This document shows positions 5,205 to 56,497 of a DNA stretch of 64,000 nt, piece by piece. The notes beneath the pieces are model-generated. The model did no database searches. It saw only the letters and a list, made by a program, of their open reading frames with translations, and had not been told where the DNA came from. Source of the DNA: Candidatus Anderseniibacteriota bacterium. Lineage in GTDB: Bacteria; Patescibacteriota; Andersenbacteria; UBA10190. Position 1 is the stretch's first letter, and each line of letters opens with the position of its first letter. The stretch lies in contig JBBDZC010000012.1 in the NCBI GenBank assembly GCA_040900375.1, positions 39,301 through 103,300 on the forward strand, in the 5' to 3' direction. The translations under genes and the position numbers were made by a program.

Positions 5205-7301
5205 TTAGAGCACGTTAAGCTTAGCGAGCAAGCGCGTCAGCGTTACCCCCACGCCAATATTCGCTAATCCAAAGAGAGCAAAGGCAAACCGGTGATCAGT
5301 TGCCGTCACTGGCACAGGCGGAGTAAGCGAGGAGGAAAGTGGTGGCGTAACGCGCGGCGATGATAGCGGAGAGATTATCGGTGACGATAGAGCCGCTTGG
5401 GTAGCCAATCTCTCATCGGGGCCGGCGAGGCTCTGGTAGTAAGGAGAGGGCGACATAACGGGGACGCTGGTGGTGGTGCCGGCTGCTCTTGCGACGGGCG
5501 GCACGGAAATTTGAGTCGCAAGGAGAGAAGAGTCGTCGGTGGTAATTTGGCCGCCCACAATATCAGTAATCACTGGCAGGGTCGTAACCGGCCACGGCGT
5601 ACCGAGAAGAGCGACTGCTGCGTACGCTGTCATAAAAGCCGACACATCGGTATGTGACCGCCACCCAAAACCACCGGTGGCTGATTGATACCGCAGCAGA
5701 GCATGCCAGGGTGTGGCGCCGGTAGTATTTTGCCAATCGTTGGGATTCTCACCTAGGGCAATAATGGCTTGCAGAGCCCACGCCGTGCTGGCCGAGTTTT
5801 CGCCAAAGCCACCATACTGATCTTGATTAAGCTGCAAGTAGTGCCGCGCGCGCTCGAGCGCCTCCTGAACATTATGCTCGCCACCCTGTCGCTGATAGGC
5901 TTGCAGGGCTTGGGTCGCCGCGGCGGTAATATCAATGCCTACCCACGAACCGTTCGCTGTCTGCTTGGTAAGAATTGTTTGGACGGTGGCGGCAATCGGG
6001 TTACCGCTGACTGGCTCACCGGCGGCCAGCAGAGCGAGAACTCCAAAAATATCATCATTCACGAGTGTTTCTTCGCCAATTTGATTGTGGTGATAGTAGC
6101 CTTTGAGCTTCGTAACTAAGTTTTGGCCGCCGAAGCGCCGCGGGTCACCGCCCCCCGCTCGCACCGCCAATACGAGCCGTTCTACATCTAGAGCGGATTC
6201 AAGAGACGTCCGGGCGAGCGCGTGGGCCAAACTATTGCTACCGACCGTAACGGCGCTGGCTCGTTCATTATTAGCTCCAAAGGCAATGGCACTCCACGCC
6301 GAGGTAATTTGACCATCAATACTGCCGTCACCCTGCTGGCGGGCGCGCAGATAACGGAGCGCTTGGGCAGCGCGCTCTTGCCGGTCAGTCGTTGTTATTC
6401 CAGCCACGTGCCCGGGTGGGGGAGTGGGGGATGGAGATAGTGTTGGTATCGCTGGAGTCGGTGAGGGACTGGGTAATGGTGACGGGAAAAGACTGGGGCT
6501 AGGAGAGCTACTGGCAACAGGGCTTGGGGAAGGGCTTAGAGATGGCGAGGGGGTGGGAGTGGGAGAGGATATGGGACTCGGTGAAGGCACAAGCACGGTG
6601 ACTACCTGGCGAGCACTGCGGATAAAAGTAGGGCCGGAAGCCTCAATAGTTAATTCACCAGGGGTGGGGGTGATGATCACCACGCCATCAGCGCCAACTT
6701 CGTGTGACTTGTCATTGACATGTAGGGTAGCGCCGCCAGCATTTTCCCACTGTCCGTGCCAGTTAAAATTTTCATCGTAGTCACCCACACGCTGCTCAAC
6801 CAAAATTTCCGCGGGTTGATCAGCATTTATGGGAGATGGCAAAGTGACGCGCAGGGGAACGCCCGGAAAAGCAGCAAAGGCTAACAGGAGATCATCTCCG
6901 GACTGGGGAGTGTAGCTATCTATCCCAACAGCCGCCGGGTCATAATTGACAAAAAATCCCCAGGATTTTGAGAAATCTGCAGGTGTGTCGTCATTGCCAA
7001 TTCGTTTGAGGAAAAGGCCAAAGCCAAAATCCTGAAATTCATAGGTTAAACCCGTAGCTTCCGCGGCAGCAACTAATGCGCAAGCACCCACTGAACTCAA
7101 CTCATGGGCAACTCCCGTCGTATCTACCACCGTGCAGTCACCAGCAGCGACGTGACCGGCGAACAGGGTGGCGGCGCTGCCCTCAATGCGCAGGTGGACA
7201 GTGGTGGCCGCGCGTACCGGAACAAATGTAACCGCAATGGCGCCGGTCGTGAGGATAAAGAACAGCCCGGCAGCGACAACGCGGTGAATGTTTTCTCTCA
7301 T
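5205..7301 (-). CDS. Cell-surface protein: signal peptide, DUF4430-like domain, Pro/Ser-rich linker, prenyltransferase/squalene-oxidase-like alpha/alpha-toroid repeats, C-terminal TM anchor
   Basis: N-terminal hydrophobic signal. The motif ...SWGFFVNYDPAAVGIDSYTPQSGDDLLLAF resembles DUF4430. A long PSPSP linker follows. QGDGS/GGFG repeats (QGDGSIDGQITSAWSAI, QTANGSWVG, YGGFGENSASTAWALQAI, TGGFGWRSHTDVSAF) are typical of terpenoid-cyclase/prenyltransferase repeats. The C-terminus is hydrophobic. Confidence 0.7.
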   Translation of the reverse strand: MRENIHRVVAAGLFFILTTGAIAVTFVPVRAATTVHLRIEGSAATLFAGHVAAGDCTVVDTTGVAHELSSVGACALVAAAEATGLTYEFQDFGFGLFLKRIGNDDTPADFSKSWGFFVNYDPAAVGIDSYTPQSGDDLLLAFAAFPGVPLRVTLPSPINADQPAEILVEQRVGDYDENFNWHGQWENAGGATLHVNDKSHEVGADGVVIITPTPGELTIEASGPTFIRSARQVVTVLVPSPSPISSPTPTPSPSLSPSPSPVASSSPSPSLFPSPLPSPSPTPAIPTLSPSPTPPPGHVAGITTTDRQERAAQALRYLRARQQGDGSIDGQITSAWSAIAFGANNERASAVTVGSNSLAHALARTSLESALDVERLVLAVRAGGGDPRRFGGQNLVTKLKGYYHHNQIGEETLVNDDIFGVLALLAAGEPVSGNPIAATVQTILTKQTANGSWVGIDITAAATQALQAYQRQGGEHNVQEALERARHYLQLNQDQYGGFGENSASTAWALQAIIALGENPNDWQNTTGATPWHALLRYQSATGGFGWRSHTDVSAFMTAYAAVALLGTPWPVTTLPVITDIVGGQITTDDSSLLATQISVPPVARAAGTTTSVPVMSPSPYYQSLAGPDERLATQAALSSPIISPLSSPRVTPPLSSSLTPPVPVTATDHRFAFALFGLANIGVGVTLTRLLAKLNVL

Positions 7302-10659: not shown

Positions 10660-10860
10660 AGTCCAAATAAAAGTCACCACGGGCATAAGCCCGTGGTATC
10701 GGGGGACTTTTGTCTGTGGCGTGCCGGCTCCGCCGGAACAGTGACAAAGCCCTTCATCCTCGGGCTTACGCCCGAGGTCTTACGGGCTCCAGATAAAGCT
10801 AATATGACAGGCAAGTAATGTACAAAAAAGGGTGCTAGTCCGTGGCACCCTAAAACTAAA
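10660..10860. repeat. Cluster of stable hairpins in a convergent intergenic region (REP-like)
   Basis: CCACGGGC-ataa-GCCCGTGG (about 10676-10695), CCGGC-tcc-GCCGG, CCTCGGGC-ttac-GCCCGAGG (about 10757-10776), AGGGTGC-tagtccgt-GGCACCCT (about 10831-10856). Confidence 0.5.
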
Positions 10861-17911: not shown

Positions 17912-18400
17912 ATGAAGCCGAGGTTAAGTCCGCGCCAACGTATTTTCGGGATCGTACTCGTCGCTAGTCTGTGTGTCGGCGCGGGGGTGCTAGTGGCAAC
18001 CCAGATTGATTTTACAATGTGGGGCAAAAGCCGAGCCTCACCTGACCCGATGCTTTTGTTACGAGAAGTTACCTTGGGAACACTGGCCTCACCTGGTGAA
18101 GCTACCAAAACTACCCCGAAGCTGCGCCAAGCAAGTAGCTACCGCGTCAACGACCCGCTTGCTTTACGGATTACGATGGACCCGGCCGTCACCGAGCCAG
18201 TGACTCTCGTGGCCCGCCTGCTGACCCCAACCGGCCAGGTGGTAGAACTAGAACCCTCGTCAGTTACTTTTAGACCCGGCACTTCGACCCATTGTTGCTG
18301 GCAAGTTGCCCAGGGCAATGATTACACGTTACAAGTTTTCTATCTTGACCGTGTGATCACCGCTTTGCCACTGCGCATTGATGCTCCCTTTACTCGATAA
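17912..18400 (+). CDS. Signal-anchored hypothetical protein
   Basis: N-terminal TM (IFGIVLVASLCVGAGVLV), otherwise no recognised motif. Confidence 0.4.
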   Translation: MKPRLSPRQRIFGIVLVASLCVGAGVLVATQIDFTMWGKSRASPDPMLLLREVTLGTLASPGEATKTTPKLRQASSYRVNDPLALRITMDPAVTEPVTLVARLLTPTGQVVELEPSSVTFRPGTSTHCCWQVAQGNDYTLQVFYLDRVITALPLRIDAPFTR

Positions 18401-18534
18401 GCTCATGGTGGCCATGCTCAATCGACAAGCACATCGCTACTCCTCTCACCAGCGCCGCCGGCAGCAAGTGTATCTCGGACTAATTTTACTACTAGTGATA
18501 GGTATTGATTGGTACCTACGGTCAAGGCAGTAAC

Positions 18535-18632
18535 CAACCCCACGTACTTACTTCCACAACCGCGGGTCCAGCCTTCGCTAAAGCTTAAGTCACCCGCGGC
18601 TGATGGGGGAATGAATCAGGTAGGGTTGGTAT
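18535..18632. repeat. MITE-like ~98-bp element, copy 1 (terminal inverted repeats ...CCAACCCC / GGGTTGGTAT, internal CCGCGGGT/ACCCGCGG stem)
   Basis: Near-identical (1 mismatch, aaagctt vs aaggctt) to the copy at about 21200-21299. The termini are inverted complements of each other. Confidence 0.7.
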
Positions 18633-18680
18633 AAGTTCAAAAAGCCCGCACAAACTTTGTACGGGCAGAGCAGGAGTAGT

Positions 18681-19109
18681 TTAAGAGACGGCAACGGGAA
18701 CGGTTCGGCCTTCTTTTAAGAAACGCCAGGATAAATCTGGCCGGCGCTCCAGGTGGTATGCATCTTTCAGGCGCTCGCTAAAGCAACTCTGCGCGCTGAC
18801 CCATTGGTGCGGCTTGCGCTCGCCCGAAGAGTAACGGACCCACCACGAGTTATTCTGCAGGGCAAGACAGTAAACTCCGTACGTTATGTCAGGGTCTTTT
18901 TGCAGAGCATACTGGTGAGCGGAGCGACAATAAGGCTCATTCTCGGCAATGACCGCCGCCAAGGAAAGAGTCCGACTAGTAGGGCGATGGCACCAGTGAT
19001 CCAAATCCTCATGGGTTAGCTCTGCGCCAGTCAGGAGTCTAAGCAGCCGCTGTGGGTGTTCATGGCGAGACGACATCTCCACGTTATTCATGGGAATCCT
19101 TTCTGTCAA
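18681..19109 (-). CDS. Hypothetical Cys/His-containing protein
   Basis: 142-aa ORF immediately downstream of the priA homolog on the same strand. No recognised domain. Confidence 0.4.
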   Translation of the reverse strand: MTERIPMNNVEMSSRHEHPQRLLRLLTGAELTHEDLDHWCHRPTSRTLSLAAVIAENEPYCRSAHQYALQKDPDITYGVYCLALQNNSWWVRYSSGERKPHQWVSAQSCFSERLKDAYHLERRPDLSWRFLKEGRTVPVAVS

Positions 19110-19215
19110 AGAACGGTAAGAAAGTACAGGTGGGCCGCAAGCAAGATTGGTCGGTAGGATAAGCAGTGAAGAGATTTTATCTGCCGCAGATCAGCTCGTC
19201 AACCCCTCGATCCTA

Positions 19216-21117
19216 CTAGAGAATTCGTTCAGGAGTGACATCAACCCGATCGAGTGGCAGAGAGGCGTACAGCGAGGTAAGTGTGTCGAGAGCACCTAAT
19301 AGTAAGAGGTGGCGTTCATACTTGCCGCGGCGCTTGGTAAGAAAACTGCTAAACGGTCCCCGAATACTGACCGGCGTACCCGCTGTCATTTTCTCTTCGA
19401 TAGCTGTACGCAATGCGATAGCTTTATGGTCTGCTCCGGCGGGGGTAGCGCTGGCGGCTGTGATAATCACTGCTTCCCGGACTGGAGGATAGCCAAAATG
19501 CTGGCGCTCGCGTAACTGACGCTCGGCGAAGGCTGTTGGGGTAAGGATTAATTGATCGGCAACCAGTTGCTCTTTGCGCGTCACGATCACAACAGGCTGG
19601 CGGGCAGGCAGGAGAGACTGTAAACGAACAAGCGTATAATATGTGCGCTCCGAACTCCGGAAATCAGGGTAGAGTAAGCCCCGTTCGGGGAAGAGGTACA
19701 CCGCGTGCTCAAGACGCTGATTCGCGAGGGCAGCAAAAAGGGCAGTCGTTCCCAGGATGACTGTCCCACCCTTGAGAGTGCTTAGGGGAGAATTAGGGCG
19801 ACGGAGGGTATCAGCATCAAGTCGGAGGAGGGAAGCGGAAGCAGGCAGAAGTTCCTGCAAAAGGTCAGCGATTTTTTCTGTGCCGGCACCAAAGGAACGC
19901 AGCTTTTCCTGGTGACAGTGCGGGCAACGAGACGGGACTGCCTGTACCTTCCCACAGTGATGACATTGGAGACGGCGTAAGCCGGGCCCATGCACCGTGA
20001 AAGCAATATTACACTCGGGACAGCGCACAGCCTGATGACATGAACTACAAACAATTGTTTGCCAGACACCCCGTACATTATGGAGAATCGCGATACGCTC
20101 ACGTGCGGCCACCCAGCTTTTTAGCTGTCTCACAAACGTCGAGGGCAAACTCAAGTACTGCTTTTGCTCCGCCTCGGATAAAGCTATGACCCTAGGTTGC
20201 GGCAGACGGGGACGCCGTGTCAGCGGCGGTAAGGTGCCAGAAGCAACGGCGTGTTCTATGCGGAGCGAGGGGAAGCTTGTGGCATAGACTTGCACAGCGT
20301 GGTGAATTCCTGCCAGCACCCGGCTGATATCGAGATTGTGGAGGCGCGGATATTGATCCCATAATTTGTGGGTGCTGTAAAATTCTTCTTCGATCACAAT
20401 TACACCAAGGTTAGCGAAAGGTAAGAAAGCTGCTTTCTGGGTACCAATGATAAGCTGCAGGTTACCCGTGCGAACCTGGTGCCAGATCAGCGTAGATTGC
20501 TTCGGGGTCAAATCAGCGTGCATGAGGGCGAAGCGAGAAGCGGCGGTGGTGGTCTCCGCGAGACGAGCAATATGCTCGAGCATCCATTTTTCCGGGACTA
20601 ATATTAACACTTGTCGGCTTTGGCGCCAGGCTTGCTCCATCCGGGGTAGGTAGCGGCGAAAACGACTCATAAGCCTTCGGGCCACCACGACGGTATCATT
20701 GGCAATGAGCGGGGGAGCGGGGGAGGGCTGGGTGAGAACGGTCTGCGCCGCAGCCGGAAAAGATGGTGACTGCTGGCGCGTGACTGCTGGCGGATAGAAG
20801 AGACGCAACGTGTAGCCTAAACCCCCGCGCATGGTGCGATGAATCCAATGCGCAAATTCCACCTGGCGCGCAGTGAGCTGCAGGGGGGAGAGAAGAGTTA
20901 GCTCCTTGGTGAGGTAGGGGACACGCTGACGATGTACATTAACTACTACGCCCGGCACAACACGGCGGCCAAAAGGAATGGTTACCCGGGCAAATATCTC
21001 GGGCTCATGGCGTAGGGTAGCCGGCACATGGTAGGTGTAGGCCTGGGCGCTGGTGGCCGGCAGAGGAATGGCAGGGGCGACCTCGACATACACACGTGAT
21101 TTTTTTGTAGATACCAT
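19216..21117 (-). CDS. priA: Primosomal protein N' (PriA) homolog with degenerate ATPase motifs
   Basis: Collinear with PriA through the helicase core and the Cys-rich region (CSSC...CPEC...CHHC...CPHC). Walker A is absent (RRLMSRFRRYLP where GVTGSGKTEVYL is expected). Motif II reads IEEEF (expected DEEH). Motif VI lacks GRAGR. Confidence 0.75.
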   Translation of the reverse strand: MVSTKKSRVYVEVAPAIPLPATSAQAYTYHVPATLRHEPEIFARVTIPFGRRVVPGVVVNVHRQRVPYLTKELTLLSPLQLTARQVEFAHWIHRTMRGGLGYTLRLFYPPAVTRQQSPSFPAAAQTVLTQPSPAPPLIANDTVVVARRLMSRFRRYLPRMEQAWRQSRQVLILVPEKWMLEHIARLAETTTAASRFALMHADLTPKQSTLIWHQVRTGNLQLIIGTQKAAFLPFANLGVIVIEEEFYSTHKLWDQYPRLHNLDISRVLAGIHHAVQVYATSFPSLRIEHAVASGTLPPLTRRPRLPQPRVIALSEAEQKQYLSLPSTFVRQLKSWVAARERIAILHNVRGVWQTIVCSSCHQAVRCPECNIAFTVHGPGLRRLQCHHCGKVQAVPSRCPHCHQEKLRSFGAGTEKIADLLQELLPASASLLRLDADTLRRPNSPLSTLKGGTVILGTTALFAALANQRLEHAVYLFPERGLLYPDFRSSERTYYTLVRLQSLLPARQPVVIVTRKEQLVADQLILTPTAFAERQLRERQHFGYPPVREAVIITAASATPAGADHKAIALRTAIEEKMTAGTPVSIRGPFSSFLTKRRGKYERHLLLLGALDTLTSLYASLPLDRVDVTPERIL

Positions 21118-21199
21118 ACATTATCACCGTACCATGAGGACCAGAATTGCACCGCTCTTTTTGGTAGACTGTTCGCCCACCATGCTCCCTCAAGCTCAT

Positions 21200-21299
21200 A
21201 CCAACCCCACGTACTTACTTCCACAACCGCGGGTCCAGCCTTCGCTAAGGCTTAAGTCACCCGCGGCTGATGGGGGAATGAATCAGGTAGGGTTGGTAT
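21200..21299. repeat. MITE-like ~98-bp element, copy 2
   Basis: ATACCAACCCCACGTACTTACTTCCACAACCGCGGGTCCAGCCTTCGCTAAGGCTTAAGTCACCCGCGGCTGATGGGGGAATGAATCAGGTAGGGTTGGTAT. Abuts the stop of the AMMECR1-like gene. Confidence 0.7.
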
Positions 21300-21817
21300 C
21301 ACTCATCGTAATGGGTCACTTCAAAACGATACATCGTGAAATCCTCGCGGTGGGAATCAATCCGTGACTCACGCAAAGCCGTAGCAATTTGGTCTTGGCC
21401 TGTTTCGATGCCAACCCGTTGGGGCAACAGCAGCGCTGATTTTTCCGTCGTGGACTTGAGGTATAGCCCAAAATGTTGGGGATCTAAATGATCGGGATCA
21501 CTAATACGCTGGAGGGGGCCCAACAGTGCCACACTATAAACCAAATACGATAAGTCTGCGTGGCGCACGCGGCGGGTTTGGTGATTGCTAATCGCAATAA
21601 TCGTATTAGTAATAATTTCTTCAGCAAGAGTGGGTTGATAGGGTAAAGGCTGGCCATACATGGAGCGCAAGCGCCGTCCCGGATTCTCAAAAATTGAGAC
21701 ATAGCATGCTTTCTGTCGCAAGGCCTCGGGCGGTAGGGCAGGGGGTAAGGGCAACGGTTCGTTGGTGCGAACATAATGTTCGGCAGAATGGCGGGCTAAT
21801 TTAACGTAGGTGCTCAT
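21299..21817 (-). CDS. AMMECR1-domain protein
   Basis: KACYVSIFENPGRRLRSMYG resembles the AMMECR1 core (G.FVT....LRGCIG-like). 172 aa. Confidence 0.55.
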   Translation of the reverse strand: MSTYVKLARHSAEHYVRTNEPLPLPPALPPEALRQKACYVSIFENPGRRLRSMYGQPLPYQPTLAEEIITNTIIAISNHQTRRVRHADLSYLVYSVALLGPLQRISDPDHLDPQHFGLYLKSTTEKSALLLPQRVGIETGQDQIATALRESRIDSHREDFTMYRFEVTHYDE

Positions 21818-24471: not shown

Positions 24472-25233
24472 ATGACTTTACCCTTACCTACCCGTGAAGC
24501 TCCACGGGCTCACGCCCGTGGCCTCTCCCGTCAAGGGACGCCGCCGCAGGCGGTGAGCGGAACCCCGCGAAGCCGAAGGCCCAGCTACCCCACTTCGCTC
24601 GCCGTTGGCGAGCTCCGCGGGGTACCCCATTCGCCTTCATCCACGGGCTCACGCCCGTGGCTTTCGGCGAAGTGGGGTAAACTTCCATCCGAGGCTAAGC
24701 GCGTCTTTACCGGACGCATTTTTAGTGTGTGGCAATGGGAACAGCAACTATATAACGGTAGTACGGCAATCTTTGAAGGGATTAGCCGCCCCGACTATGT
24801 TTGTGCTATTGGAATATTGCCTAATCAAAAACTCCTGTTAGTGGAAGATGAACAACCTGATCGTCCAGCCATCATCACGCCGGCAGGCGGTCAACTCGAG
24901 CCGGGTGAAGAACCAAGCGCGGGCGCAGGACGAGAATTCCGGGAAGAAACAGGCTATGAAGCCAGGCAGCTTGTACCCTGGTTTACGTATCAGCCAAATA
25001 GTAAATTATTTATGACGTGCCACTTCTTCATCGCCCGCCATCTTACAGCGCACGGTCAGACCGCGCTTGAAGCAGGGGAGCGCATCACGCTTAAGCAGTA
25101 CACTTTTGCGGAATTTGTCGCCCTTGGGAGCGACCCGGCTGTACGAGATGGAATGTTACGTATTAAGCTGCTTGAAGCCCAGCTTGATCCCCAAAAGAAA
25201 CAAGATCTCCACCACTTACTCTATGCCCGGTAG
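24472..25233 (+). CDS. NUDIX hydrolase (ADP-ribose pyrophosphatase-like); the first ~75 codons of the ORF are encoded by the hairpin-repeat element and the true start is uncertain
   Basis: NUDIX box GGQLEPGEEPSAGAGREFREETG. Conserved N-terminal strand GRIFSVWQWEQQ begins about nt 24700. The upstream in-frame sequence is Pro/Arg-rich low complexity derived from the repeats. Confidence 0.75.
   Translation: MTLPLPTREAPRAHARGLSRQGTPPQAVSGTPRSRRPSYPTSLAVGELRGVPHSPSSTGSRPWLSAKWGKLPSEAKRVFTGRIFSVWQWEQQLYNGSTAIFEGISRPDYVCAIGILPNQKLLLVEDEQPDRPAIITPAGGQLEPGEEPSAGAGREFREETGYEARQLVPWFTYQPNSKLFMTCHFFIARHLTAHGQTALEAGERITLKQYTFAEFVALGSDPAVRDGMLRIKLLEAQLDPQKKQDLHHLLYAR
24514..24661. repeat. Pair of identical 20-nt palindromic hairpins (CCACGGGCTCACGCCCGTGG) flanking a ~108-nt structured segment, within the 5' region of the NUDIX ORF
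   Basis: Exact copies at about 24514-24533 and 24642-24661. Between them, 13-nt complementary arms TACCCCACTTCGC / GCGAAGTGGGGTA. Same hairpin family as 10676 and 10757. Confidence 0.55.
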
Positions 25234-26572
25234 TGAAAAACAGGTTCGTGTCCGGATCGCGCCTAGTCCCACCGGTAATCTTCATGTGGGCACGGTCCGC
25301 GCGGCTCTTTTTAATGAACTTTTTGCTCGCCACCACGGCGGCAGCTTCATCATCCGTATTGAAGATACTGATAAGGCGCGCTCGCGTCCCGAGTTTGAAC
25401 GTAATATTCTCGAGGGCTTAGCCTGGCTGGGAATAGAGTGGCAGGAAGGGCCGGACAAAGACGGTAGTTTTGGTCCCTACCGTCAGTCAGAACGTATTGA
25501 ACACTACCGCGCCGCTTTGCAGGCGCTCTTGGACCAGGATAAAGCTTACTATGATGAGACAGCTAATAACGTCATTCGGTTACGTGTGGCTCCTCAAGAA
25601 GTACGGTTTACTGACCTTATCCGGGGAGAAATTATTACCCATACTGATAGTTGGGGAGGGGACTTTGTGATCGCGCGCGACCTTAAAGATCCTGTTTTTC
25701 ATCTCGCGGTTGTGGTTGATGATGCCGCCCAGCAGATTAGCCATGTGATTAGGGGAGAGGACCATATCAGCAATACCGCCCGCCATCTTTTACTGCAGCA
25801 AGCGCTTAATCTTCCAACACCGCACTATGCTCACTTACCATTACTCCTGGATGAGCATCGCCGGAAACTCTCGAAGCGGGCAGGGGAAGTCAGTGTGCTC
25901 ACGTACCAACAGCACGGCTACTTGCCGGATGCTCTGCTAAACTATTTAGCGCTGCTGGGTTGGAATCCCAAGAATGACCAAGAATATTTCACCCACGAAG
26001 AACTAATTCGTAACTTTAACCTGCCGGGTATCCAAAAGGGCGGAGCAGTTTTCTCCCTGGTAAAGCTGCAAGGTTTTAATAAGTATTATTTACGCCAATT
26101 ATCACCGCCGGCGTTGTTGGCGGCAGCCGAGCCGTATTTACGCCAGGCGGGAATCGCGGTGGATAATACGGCTTACTGGCAGTCGGCGCTGCAAACAGAG
26201 CAAGAGCGGGTGAGTACTCTTCAAGAATTAGGCCAGGCTGTAGCGTTTTTTGCACCAGACTGGCAAGGTGATTTCCCGGGGACGCTGCTTATATGGAAAA
26301 AAAGTGATCGTCAGCAGACACGGCAGATTCTAGAAAAATTAGCCCAGTTTCTTGAGACCCTGCCCGAGCCGACGTTTACGGTGCAAAGTCTCCACGATGA
26401 GATTATGAACTGGCTGGAGACAGAACAGTTGGGACGAGGGGATACACTGTGGCCTCTGCGGGTGGCCCTGACTGGACGCGAGCATTCACCTGGGCCCTTT
26501 GAAGTAGCCGCCGTCCTGGGCAAACAGGCGACGCTGCAGCGCATTGCGCAGGCGCTGGAGAAACTATTATAA
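25223..26572 (+). CDS. gltX: Glutamyl-tRNA synthetase (the ORF opens at 25067; likely start at MPGSEKQ, 25223, overlapping the NUDIX stop)
   Basis: HIGH-region PSPTGNLHVG and KMSKS-like KLSKR, in the class I GluRS arrangement. Confidence 0.9.
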   Translation: MPGSEKQVRVRIAPSPTGNLHVGTVRAALFNELFARHHGGSFIIRIEDTDKARSRPEFERNILEGLAWLGIEWQEGPDKDGSFGPYRQSERIEHYRAALQALLDQDKAYYDETANNVIRLRVAPQEVRFTDLIRGEIITHTDSWGGDFVIARDLKDPVFHLAVVVDDAAQQISHVIRGEDHISNTARHLLLQQALNLPTPHYAHLPLLLDEHRRKLSKRAGEVSVLTYQQHGYLPDALLNYLALLGWNPKNDQEYFTHEELIRNFNLPGIQKGGAVFSLVKLQGFNKYYLRQLSPPALLAAAEPYLRQAGIAVDNTAYWQSALQTEQERVSTLQELGQAVAFFAPDWQGDFPGTLLIWKKSDRQQTRQILEKLAQFLETLPEPTFTVQSLHDEIMNWLETEQLGRGDTLWPLRVALTGREHSPGPFEVAAVLGKQATLQRIAQALEKLL

Positions 26573-38745: not shown

Positions 38746-39917
38746 ACCTAGAGGGTAGATGAGAGCGTAGGAGAGAGCAACAGATCCAAGTCTTAAAAAA
38801 GTAGCTTGAAGAACTCTACTGTTTCTTTCTCGAGAGTGATGCAACATGAAGGTAGTAACCCAGAAGTCTGTCGGCAAACCGGGTAAGAAAAGTTTGTATA
38901 AAGACTCCTAGGTTCCCCGCTCATAGGCGGGGAGGTCGTATGCCTAGGATGCGCCCCGCTCCTTCAGACGGGGCTAGCTTGTTGGCACCCTACGTAGTAG
39001 GCATGCCGAGATAAAGAACACTGCACGTCTTCTTTAAGAAGACGCACATTGCCTAAAGCAAAAGCCCTGGGCAATAAGCACCCTCTTCATGGATTAAGGA
39101 GCTTTACTAAAGAACTTTCTAGTATAACTAGCCAAACAGAAAACGCAAGTCCGCTGCATTTCCTTACGTCGTACCCTAAAACTTAAAGAAAAAGCCGTGT
39201 AGTATGCGAGCACTCCTAGGGGGCAGTACCAGGATTGCGGACACATACCACACGGCATAGTCTCCTCTGTTCCGACAGAGAAGAAAGAACCCAGTGAGCT
39301 GGTCAGTCTCCAGCGTTAGCTGGTATGTAAGCCTAAGGGATAGCGGACCTCCTTGTGTGAGGACCTCCAGGCCTTCACGGCTACCTTTATGGCCTACTCA
39401 CTGGGTTACTCTGTTGGACTTGACGCAGATAAACTGCCGTCCAACTGATGAAAAAGAACACTATGATGACTCCGCGACCCCGCCTTTTTAAGAGAAAGGA
39501 GATGAGGCCGCGGAGCTAAAGACTTCTGATACCTTCTTAGTGACGAGGAGCACCTGGAGTCTAGTTACAGACATAGGTTCTTTATAACGTCGTGTGAGCA
39601 GTAGGATTCACGCGACATACTTAAACGTGCGCAAGACACGGTAAGTCGAAACTGACCGAGCTGTAGTTGCACGCAAGCTCCCTCCTCACCACTAAGAAGG
39701 TGTAGAAGTTTTTTAAGATGCTTTTCTCTTCTCAAGGTACGGCAATAACCATTTAGTATACTCTTCCGTGATAGTTTGTCAAGTTTTGTTTACATTTTCC
39801 TTGTACTATCTGATTCTTCTGCCAAGTAAAGCCGTTTTATTATAAAATATGTGTCAATTTTTACCGTCAATACTATGGATATTCTCAACAATTAAAAAGT
39901 AAGGCACAATAAAGGAG

Positions 39918-56284: not shown

Positions 56285-56497
56285 ATAATTAACTTATGCC
56301 CCATCATGGGGGGAAAGCATCTTTTTGTCAACCCATTCGACTCCACGGTCTAAAGGCCGTGGCTTGCTTAAGGGTTGACTCTAAAGCCGCGCGTATCTCC
56401 ACCCTGAAGGGTGGAGCTTGCGCGAGTCGAAGAGTCAATCTTTGATAAGCTCCCCTCGACTCTTAAAGATCGGGGTCGAATGGGTCAAGGGGAAAAC
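56285..56497 (-). promoter_or_regulatory. Highly structured 5' leader of rplU (nested long hairpins); possible ribosomal-protein leader / terminator of the upstream gene
   Basis: CCACGG-n8-CCGTGG, a long imperfect hairpin TTGACTCT...CTCCACCC-tgaa-GGGTGGAG...AGAGTCAA, and CCCCTCGA...GGGGTCGA. Confidence 0.35.

Follow-up and report, generated by a model that had tools for sequence, protein, structure and literature searches.

A near-identical pair of 100-nt palindromic repeats around a PriA-like gene of an Andersenbacteria genome

The repeat pair and its locus

The window analysed here is a 64,000-nt stretch of a genome of Candidatus Anderseniibacteriota bacterium (assembly GCA_040900375.1, contig JBBDZC010000012.1, positions 39,301 to 103,300 of the forward strand), with a G+C content of 50.7%. 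Its open reading frames (ORFs) are of the housekeeping kind, coding for RF-1, FtsEX, pentose-phosphate enzymes, tRNA synthetases, DnaK/DnaJ/GrpE/HrcA, DnaB, RecR, ribosomal proteins, LexA and RmuC. Among them lies a minus-strand operon formed by an AMMECR1-family gene, a PriA-like gene and a small gene, in which a 100-nt palindromic repeat, the subject of this study, is found twice: copy 2 stands between AMMECR1 and priA, and copy 1 beyond the small gene, where the operon meets genes of the opposite strand (Table 1). In a repeat search these two copies made up the single long direct-repeat family of the window. They start 2,667 nt apart and are 99% identical, with one mismatch (A18582 in copy 1, G21249 in copy 2, + strand), and the similarity between them ends sharply at both borders, with none beyond the unit.

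Table 1. Features at the repeat-bearing locus, with positions counted on the + strand of the window; fold energies are for RNA.
Feature	Position	Strand	Description
Converging gene	17912-18400	+	162 aa
Conserved small ORF	18405/18414-18533	+	39-42 aa; basic N-terminus and hydrophobic segment
Repeat copy 1	18533..18632	-	100 nt, imperfect palindrome; convergent intergenic spacer; fold of minus strand -48.1 kcal/mol (z -4.6), of plus strand -39.6 kcal/mol (z -2.2)
Intrinsic terminator of the AMMECR1-priA-small gene operon	18639..18666	-	GCCCGTACAAAGTTTGTGCGGGC (hairpin 18666-18644), then TTTTT
Small gene after priA	18681..19109	-	142 aa from TTG; 136 aa from ATG at 19091 (Logan call)
PriA-like gene, Andersenbacteria type	19216..21117	-	633 aa; PF17764
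104-aa ORF	21053-21367	+	traverses copy 2; antisense to priA start and AMMECR1 end
Unique spacer, copy 2 to priA start	21118..21199	-	82 nt, outside the repeat; missing in relatives
Repeat copy 2	21200..21299	-	100 nt; between AMMECR1 stop codon and priA; fold of minus strand -56.2 kcal/mol (z -6.1), of plus strand -46.4 kcal/mol (z -4.6)
AMMECR1-family gene	21299..21817	-	172 aa; PF01871

When a 41-nt piece of the repeat was searched with up to 3 mismatches allowed, only these two sites were matched, and there were no matches in 100 shuffles. The repeat also leaves its mark on de Bruijn-graph assemblies, which it breaks up at this locus: in an independent Logan assembly of SRR27977660 the contigs terminate exactly 30 nt inside the repeat on each side, one of them (L003) corresponding to window positions 18604-21229 and the other (L001) beginning at 21270. 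This is how a k=31 graph behaves at a true repeat, so that the repeat is not the artefact of one assembler, and with two independent assemblies in agreement an assembly artefact was ruled out. The near-identical pair with one differing position that a reading of the sequence alone (the sequence-only reading) had pointed out is therefore real, although its left start of 18535 and length of ~98 bp have to be corrected, since the true start is 2 nt further left, at 18533, and the unit is 100 nt long.

Each copy is an imperfect palindrome with an inner stem plus an apical hairpin. The perfect terminal inverted repeat (TIR) common to both copies is 8 nt long (ACCAACCC/GGGTTGGT), and in this form the inverted termini proposed earlier hold; the 10-nt form then quoted, ATACCAACCC...GGGTTGGTAT, is valid in copy 2 only and fails in copy 1, which has TAACCAACCC. 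The arms continue as a degenerate palindrome of 23-25 nt at 74-76% complementarity, and the internal stem CCGCGGGT/ACCCGCGG, likewise proposed earlier, is present with 11-nt arms at 91%. Folding of the unit gave a strong hairpin, both strands of both copies folding far better than the dinucleotide shuffles to which the z-scores refer, with RNA and with DNA parameters. The minus (gene) strand is the better folder, with the same ordering under DNA parameters, and a covariance model scored copy 1 with 126.7 bits on the minus strand vs 31.2 on the plus strand.

The unit does not code for protein, as had been supposed: stop codons occur in 5/6 reading frames, the sole open frame is without a usable start, and a six-frame peptide query (described below) had 0 matches. 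No U-tract or T-run follows either copy on either strand and the terminator of the operon sits outside the repeat, for which reason the repeat was rejected as an intrinsic terminator. None of the Rfam 15 covariance models reached its gathering score in the window, none overlapped the repeats at E ≤ 10, and ARAGORN found no tRNA or tmRNA at the repeats, by which a tRNA-like or known RNA family identity was ruled out.

Two sites that carry the repeat here but not in relatives

The locus was compared with those of syntenic relatives, namely L004 (Logan), L005 (NCBI GCA_964470115.1) and L006/L007 (ENA and JGI groundwater), three distinct ones in all. These have in common the gene order WecG-LigT, AMMECR1-priA-(small gene), a converging gene of 163-169 aa, 2-hydroxyacid dehydrogenase and transketolase, and they are distant, the priA products being 43-47% identical in alignment, which is too far to yield empty-site sequence. 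The AMMECR1 and priA genes overlap by 11 nt in L004 and by 8 nt in L005, and are separated by 11 nt in L006. The gap between them in the window is 181 nt, made up of the 100-nt repeat and an unrelated spacer of 82 nt. At the L004 counterpart of the copy 1 site, the stop codon and the terminator almost touch, and a terminator equivalent to that of the window also follows the L004 homologue of the small gene. The repeat is missing from both orthologous junctions in L004, L005 and L006/L007, no palindrome comparable to it was found at the corresponding junctions, and neither blastn, nhmmer nor the covariance model found a sequence or structure match to the unit in ~92 kb of the relatives' loci. 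Since the repeat is absent from syntenic relatives with the same gene order, both copies are lineage-specific insertions, at sites occupied here and empty in the relatives.

The insertions lie very close to genes that they left intact. Copy 2 adjoins the TGA of AMMECR1 (21301-21299, minus strand) and meets it at the last base of the stop codon (21299), which the two share, in agreement with the earlier statement that the right copy abuts this stop. The AMMECR1 and priA proteins are intact and match their orthologues in length, and the C-terminus of AMMECR1 (...VTHYDE, then the stop) is the same as in its L004 orthologue; this protein was thus left unaltered by the insertion. In the spacer between copy 2 and priA (21118-21199) a GGTGA Shine-Dalgarno-like motif precedes the priA ATG by 6 nt, and no promoter-like site was found. 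The 104-aa ORF that the sequence-only reading called spurious was confirmed to run through copy 2, and it is antisense to two real genes.

Copy 1 is placed where a small + strand ORF and the minus-strand operon run up against each other: the final base of the ORF's TAA stop doubles as the first shared base of the copy, and at its other end the copy lies ~7 nt past the T-run of the operon's intrinsic terminator. The small ORF has homologues of 38-39 aa at the same position in L004 (~5480-5595), L005 (8275-8394) and L007 (7875-7991), all on the minus strand, which read MNILAARQAGRLSPRKR..., MKAIIARQAKRFTPQQRR... and MPLKIRQSEERFPATVRRR... Members of the family have a basic N-terminal stretch (..ARQA.R..P..RR) that leads into a hydrophobic helix, and are encoded downstream of a gene of 162-169 aa in the window as in all three relatives. 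The C-terminus of the window ORF is ~4 aa longer than those of the relatives, and its stop is completed by the first base of copy 1. As copy 1 is hemmed in by two conserved features, the inserted unit is of at most 100 nt, and the possibility that copy 2 runs on through the 82-nt spacer is excluded.

At both sites one end of the repeat touches a stop codon, namely that of AMMECR1 (TGA-TA-CCAACCC) and that of the small ORF (TAA-CCAACCC). This may reflect a preference for TA/AT-rich targets or, alternatively, may arise because very short spacers are the sole landing sites tolerated. If the element is delimited as 96 nt (CCAACCC...GGGTTGG), its flanks are TA/TA in copy 2 and AA/TA in copy 1; as 98 nt, they are AT/AT and TA/AT, respectively. 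The flanking TA is compatible with a TA target like that of miniature inverted-repeat transposable elements (MITEs) of the IS630/Tc1 type, of which it is no proof.

The comparison with relatives also bears on the 2.6-kb segment between the copies, which the sequence-only reading had taken for a potential composite unit with a degenerate priA and an orphan gene of 142 aa. Relatives keep the gene order of the priA region without the repeats, as a synteny check of this region showed, so that the segment is ancestral and not a mobile composite; a composite transposon was ruled out on these grounds, the order AMMECR1-priA-small gene-convergent gene being ancestral and syntenic. Nor is the small gene an orphan: although its product has no Pfam match, a positional homologue follows priA in L004 (5024-5443; 32% identity over 96 aa, E 1e-14), and the two proteins have the motif HW(C/V)HRPT...SLA.VI in common.

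The PriA-like product is identical to the NCBI protein WEA04_02880, and its next closest homologue is just 46% identical. Still present in it are the 3'-DNA-binding domain, the zinc region with its eight cysteines and the C-terminal domain; Walker A is missing, and EEEF stands in place of DEEH. The same is seen throughout the five Andersenbacteria-type PriA sequences that we aligned, all of which lack a winged-helix region as well as the Walker A motif GxGKT, are conserved in length and have EEE at the position of the canonical DEEH (EQA in one). This is not a decaying copy, therefore, and from its sequence the Andersenbacteria-type PriA looks like a conserved protein and not a pseudogene, which is probably devoid of ATPase activity because the Walker A motif is missing.

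The nature and origin of the repeat

Near-identical copies with sharp borders, between intact flanking genes, at sites that are empty in relatives, lead us to lean, with modest confidence, towards a lineage-specific, recently copied, non-autonomous palindromic element of the MITE or ERIC kind, mobilised in trans or copied locally. To judge by the 99% identity of the two copies, the spread was recent. Small non-coding size, TIRs and presence or absence at orthologous sites are features that the repeat has in common with MITEs, and the window holds at least one further palindromic repeat family, which we count in favour of this interpretation. The MITE proposed by the sequence-only reading is thus reasonable in so far as it stands for a small insert that is non-coding, palindromic, sharp-edged and absent from the junctions of relatives. 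A trans-acting transposase, whose gene lies elsewhere in the genome or has been lost since, would have copied the unit into two nearby intergenic positions of a conserved housekeeping gene cluster, and a local hop would account for the 2.7-kb spacing. Alternatively, the unit may have been duplicated by a hairpin-mediated copy mechanism.

Several results weigh against such an element. There are two copies only, at most 2.7 kb apart, and no third one in the 64 kb of the window plus a right-hand extension of 4.5 kb; within the window, low-stringency blastn-short and nhmmer detected not even a partial further copy, and the covariance model no third one. By simple arithmetic, two copies placed at random in 64 kb fall within 2.7 kb of each other ~8% of the time, which speaks for a single local event rather than for a dispersed family. 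Pfam scans of the ~65 window ORFs revealed no transposase, integrase or reverse transcriptase domain, and within the window there is no autonomous insertion sequence (IS) with matching termini. There is no unambiguous target-site duplication (TSD) either, and the palindromic TA may merely lengthen the TIR.

The searches beyond the locus point the same way. The exact core 22-mer CCGCGGGTCCAGCCTTCGCTAA had 0 matches in the GTDB representative genomes and the JGI metagenomes, in scans that, being for exact patterns, are insensitive to diverged copies, and in a genome collection that is without the source metagenome-assembled genome: the matches there to a protein encoded 2-4 kb past the right end of the window are 55-63% identical, the best being 63%. 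A composite six-frame peptide of the unit, meant to catch spurious ORFs over other copies of the repeat, had 0 matches at E ≤ 10 among 5.8 billion proteins, and the plasmid and phage collections contained nothing relevant to the repeat. A pattern made of the TIRs only (ACCAACCCYAC-N65-95-GTRGGGTTGGT) matched 25 loci from metagenomes and 1 viral one; none has an interior related to that of the element, and they have 60-73 identical positions along the 98-nt core of the element, including the 22 that the pattern fixes. The close spacing of the copies points to a local copying event, and the family is probably a low-copy one.

As an observation apart, the pattern-matching loci L012, L014, L017, L018, L023, L027, L028 and L032 are mostly long hairpins with near-perfect pairing (90-115 nt, -60 to -121 kcal/mol), L023 having tandem ACCAACCCC units at its ends. 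These hairpins are unrelated to the element of the window and illustrate that palindromes of this sort are common.

Small palindromic intergenic repeats are commonplace in bacteria, and bacterial MITEs include Correia/NEMIS of Neisseria and IS630-derived elements such as Nezha in cyanobacteria. The repeat resembles these in being ~100 nt long and non-coding, with TIRs and an intergenic position near gene ends; they can be co-transcribed as stable hairpins, and the TA flank seen here may match theirs. It differs from them in having two known copies instead of tens to hundreds, no clear TSD, no identified partner IS and no sequence similarity to anything searched. With ERIC/IRU of enterobacteria, it shares the imperfect palindrome that spans the whole unit (~100-127 nt), the lack of coding capacity, the location in transcribed intergenic regions of operons and the variable presence among related genomes, whereas the host belongs to a phylum of the Candidate Phyla Radiation (CPR), there is no sequence relationship and two copies are known here.

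Other families of hairpins come less close. Like REP/BIME, which RAYT (Y1) transposases mobilise, and the PATEs of IS200/IS605 type, the repeat forms hairpins at the 3' ends of genes, here without a clear TSD. However, REPs are 20-40 nt long, with a conserved 5' tetranucleotide and a high copy number, and the window has no RAYT, TnpA or TnpB gene, nor do the flanks of the two copies have a common target motif. Identity with REP/BIME was rejected on account of the 100-nt unit and the lack of a Y1 transposase in the window. In a full-text literature search for MITEs in the CPR, only work on diversity-generating retroelements (DGRs) surfaced, which, in the portions available, appears not to describe an element of this kind.

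The rival that survives best is a one-off local duplication, in which a single event of hairpin template switching, gene conversion or illegitimate recombination placed a second palindrome 2.7 kb from the first, with no transposase and no family involved. It would be in keeping with two tightly clustered copies in ~70 kb, with the missing transposase and the unclear TSD, and with the fact that no homologue was found in any collection searched. However, both sites are insertions with respect to the relatives, which leaves no evident resident source copy, and in both copies the borders match the ends of the palindrome, as predicted by defined termini and not expected from random template switching. 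We regard this origin as possible but on the whole unlikely.

Another explanation does away with mobility as the reason for the repeat's presence and sees in it a functional cis-acting RNA hairpin of the minus strand, kept by selection as a 3' stabiliser, an RNase III processing site or an insulator, which would cap the operon and keep AMMECR1 and priA uncoupled. Both copies are oriented as the operon is, the fold of the minus strand is the more stable one (Table 1), and the difference between the copies pairs on the minus strand, where it is a change from G-C to G-U, and gives an A.C mismatch on the plus strand. A single substitution is worth odds of just ~2:1, however, and G-U pairs are present in the best folds of both strands (4-5 vs 3-4). 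Moreover, read on the strand that folds better, copy 1 comes after the operon's intrinsic terminator and is probably poorly transcribed in that sense, which makes a co-transcribed RNA role doubtful for this copy; there is also no U-tract, no Rfam match and nothing comparable at the junctions of relatives. Such a function seems improbable to us, and the small structured RNA gene in two copies that the sequence-only reading had offered as an alternative to a MITE is not borne out, given the Rfam result at E ≤ 10, the lack of a homologue in relatives and the position of copy 1 beyond the terminator.

A bolder combination would make the repeat the first described mobile palindromic repeat family of Andersenbacteria and the CPR and, at the same time, the hairpin at the stop codon a module of RNA processing or stability through which the expression of the Walker A-less PriA is set; we give it little credence. 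More speculatively still, the two single-stranded DNA hairpins that flank priA might be structures resembling primosome-assembly sites, bound by this PriA.

Site-specific recombination sites, of the integron attC or the attL/attR type, would turn the priA segment into an excisable cassette. Integron attC sites are imperfect palindromes (57-141 nt) located after genes in one orientation, as are these ~100-nt hairpin-forming direct repeats, and the termini ...CCAAC and GTTGG... resemble the R'' and R' cores. The match to RYYYAAC (R'') and GTTRRRY (R') is poor, however, at 5/7 each, neither a tyrosine recombinase nor any other integrase is encoded in the 64 kb, and the supposed cassette is a block of conserved core genes that is present and syntenic in relatives without the repeats. 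We rejected attC identity for these reasons and consider recombination sites of any such type very improbable. Finally, DGRs are common in CPR bacteria, and two ~100-nt repeats with a single difference, A in copy 1 vs G in copy 2 on the + strand, might recall a template/variable repeat pair altered by adenine mutagenesis, but this is scarcely credible and was rejected, as no reverse transcriptase is encoded in the window, both repeats are intergenic and neither forms the 3' part of a real gene (copy 2 is crossed by one ORF only, which is antisense to two real genes), the six-frame translations of the repeat, including the stretch of that ORF, have no protein homologue, and the unit is palindromic with one differing site only.

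Other features of the window and consequences of the insertions

A second repeat family of the window consists of short REP-like hairpins, CCACGGGC-N4-GCCCGTGG, at 10676-10697, 10757-10778, 24501-24522, 24640-24661 and 56342-56363, arranged as two pairs (81 and 139 nt apart) and a single hairpin on its own. Two compensating changes are seen in the hairpin at 10757 (CCTCGGGC...GCCCGAGG), the left-flank motif CCTTCATCC is common to two of the copies, and the Logan contig L001 breaks at 24522, within one of the hairpins. Two identical hairpins of this family lie in a GC-rich non-coding block of 221 nt (24480-24700) between a gene of 224 aa and a NUDIX gene, which also has a long-range CTACCCCACTTCGC/GCGAAGTGGGGTA pairing and folds with -114 kcal/mol on the plus and -125 kcal/mol on the minus strand. 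The sole Rfam match that overlaps this block, to 6S, is non-significant (13 bits, E 3.6). The NUDIX gene (24682-25230, +), 54-61% identical to the L006 and L005 versions, runs into the Glu/Gln-tRNA synthetase ORF as counted from its longest-ORF start (25067-26572), so that the true start of the latter must be further downstream. Downstream of aspS there is a gap of ~1 kb (38878-39917) with no ORF of at least 70 aa and no credible Rfam match.

As to the effects of the insertions, copy 2 is predicted to introduce a very stable hairpin (~-50 kcal/mol) into the AMMECR1-priA transcript and to supplant the overlap or near-abutment that the two genes have in relatives. Any translational coupling that this overlap may provide in the relatives would be lost, and priA would now start from its own GGTGA-N6-ATG. 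In the AMMECR1 message the hairpin would stand at the 3' end, which it may stabilise or mark for processing. The two copies, as direct repeats of 100 nt, may also be a substrate for deletion of priA and its partner gene by homologous recombination.

The repeat is otherwise ordinary in kind and challenges no current understanding. If it is truly MITE-like, streamlined CPR genomes of ~1 Mb would still host recently active non-autonomous repeats, and such repeats would land directly on stop codons and split tightly packed, overlapping operons.

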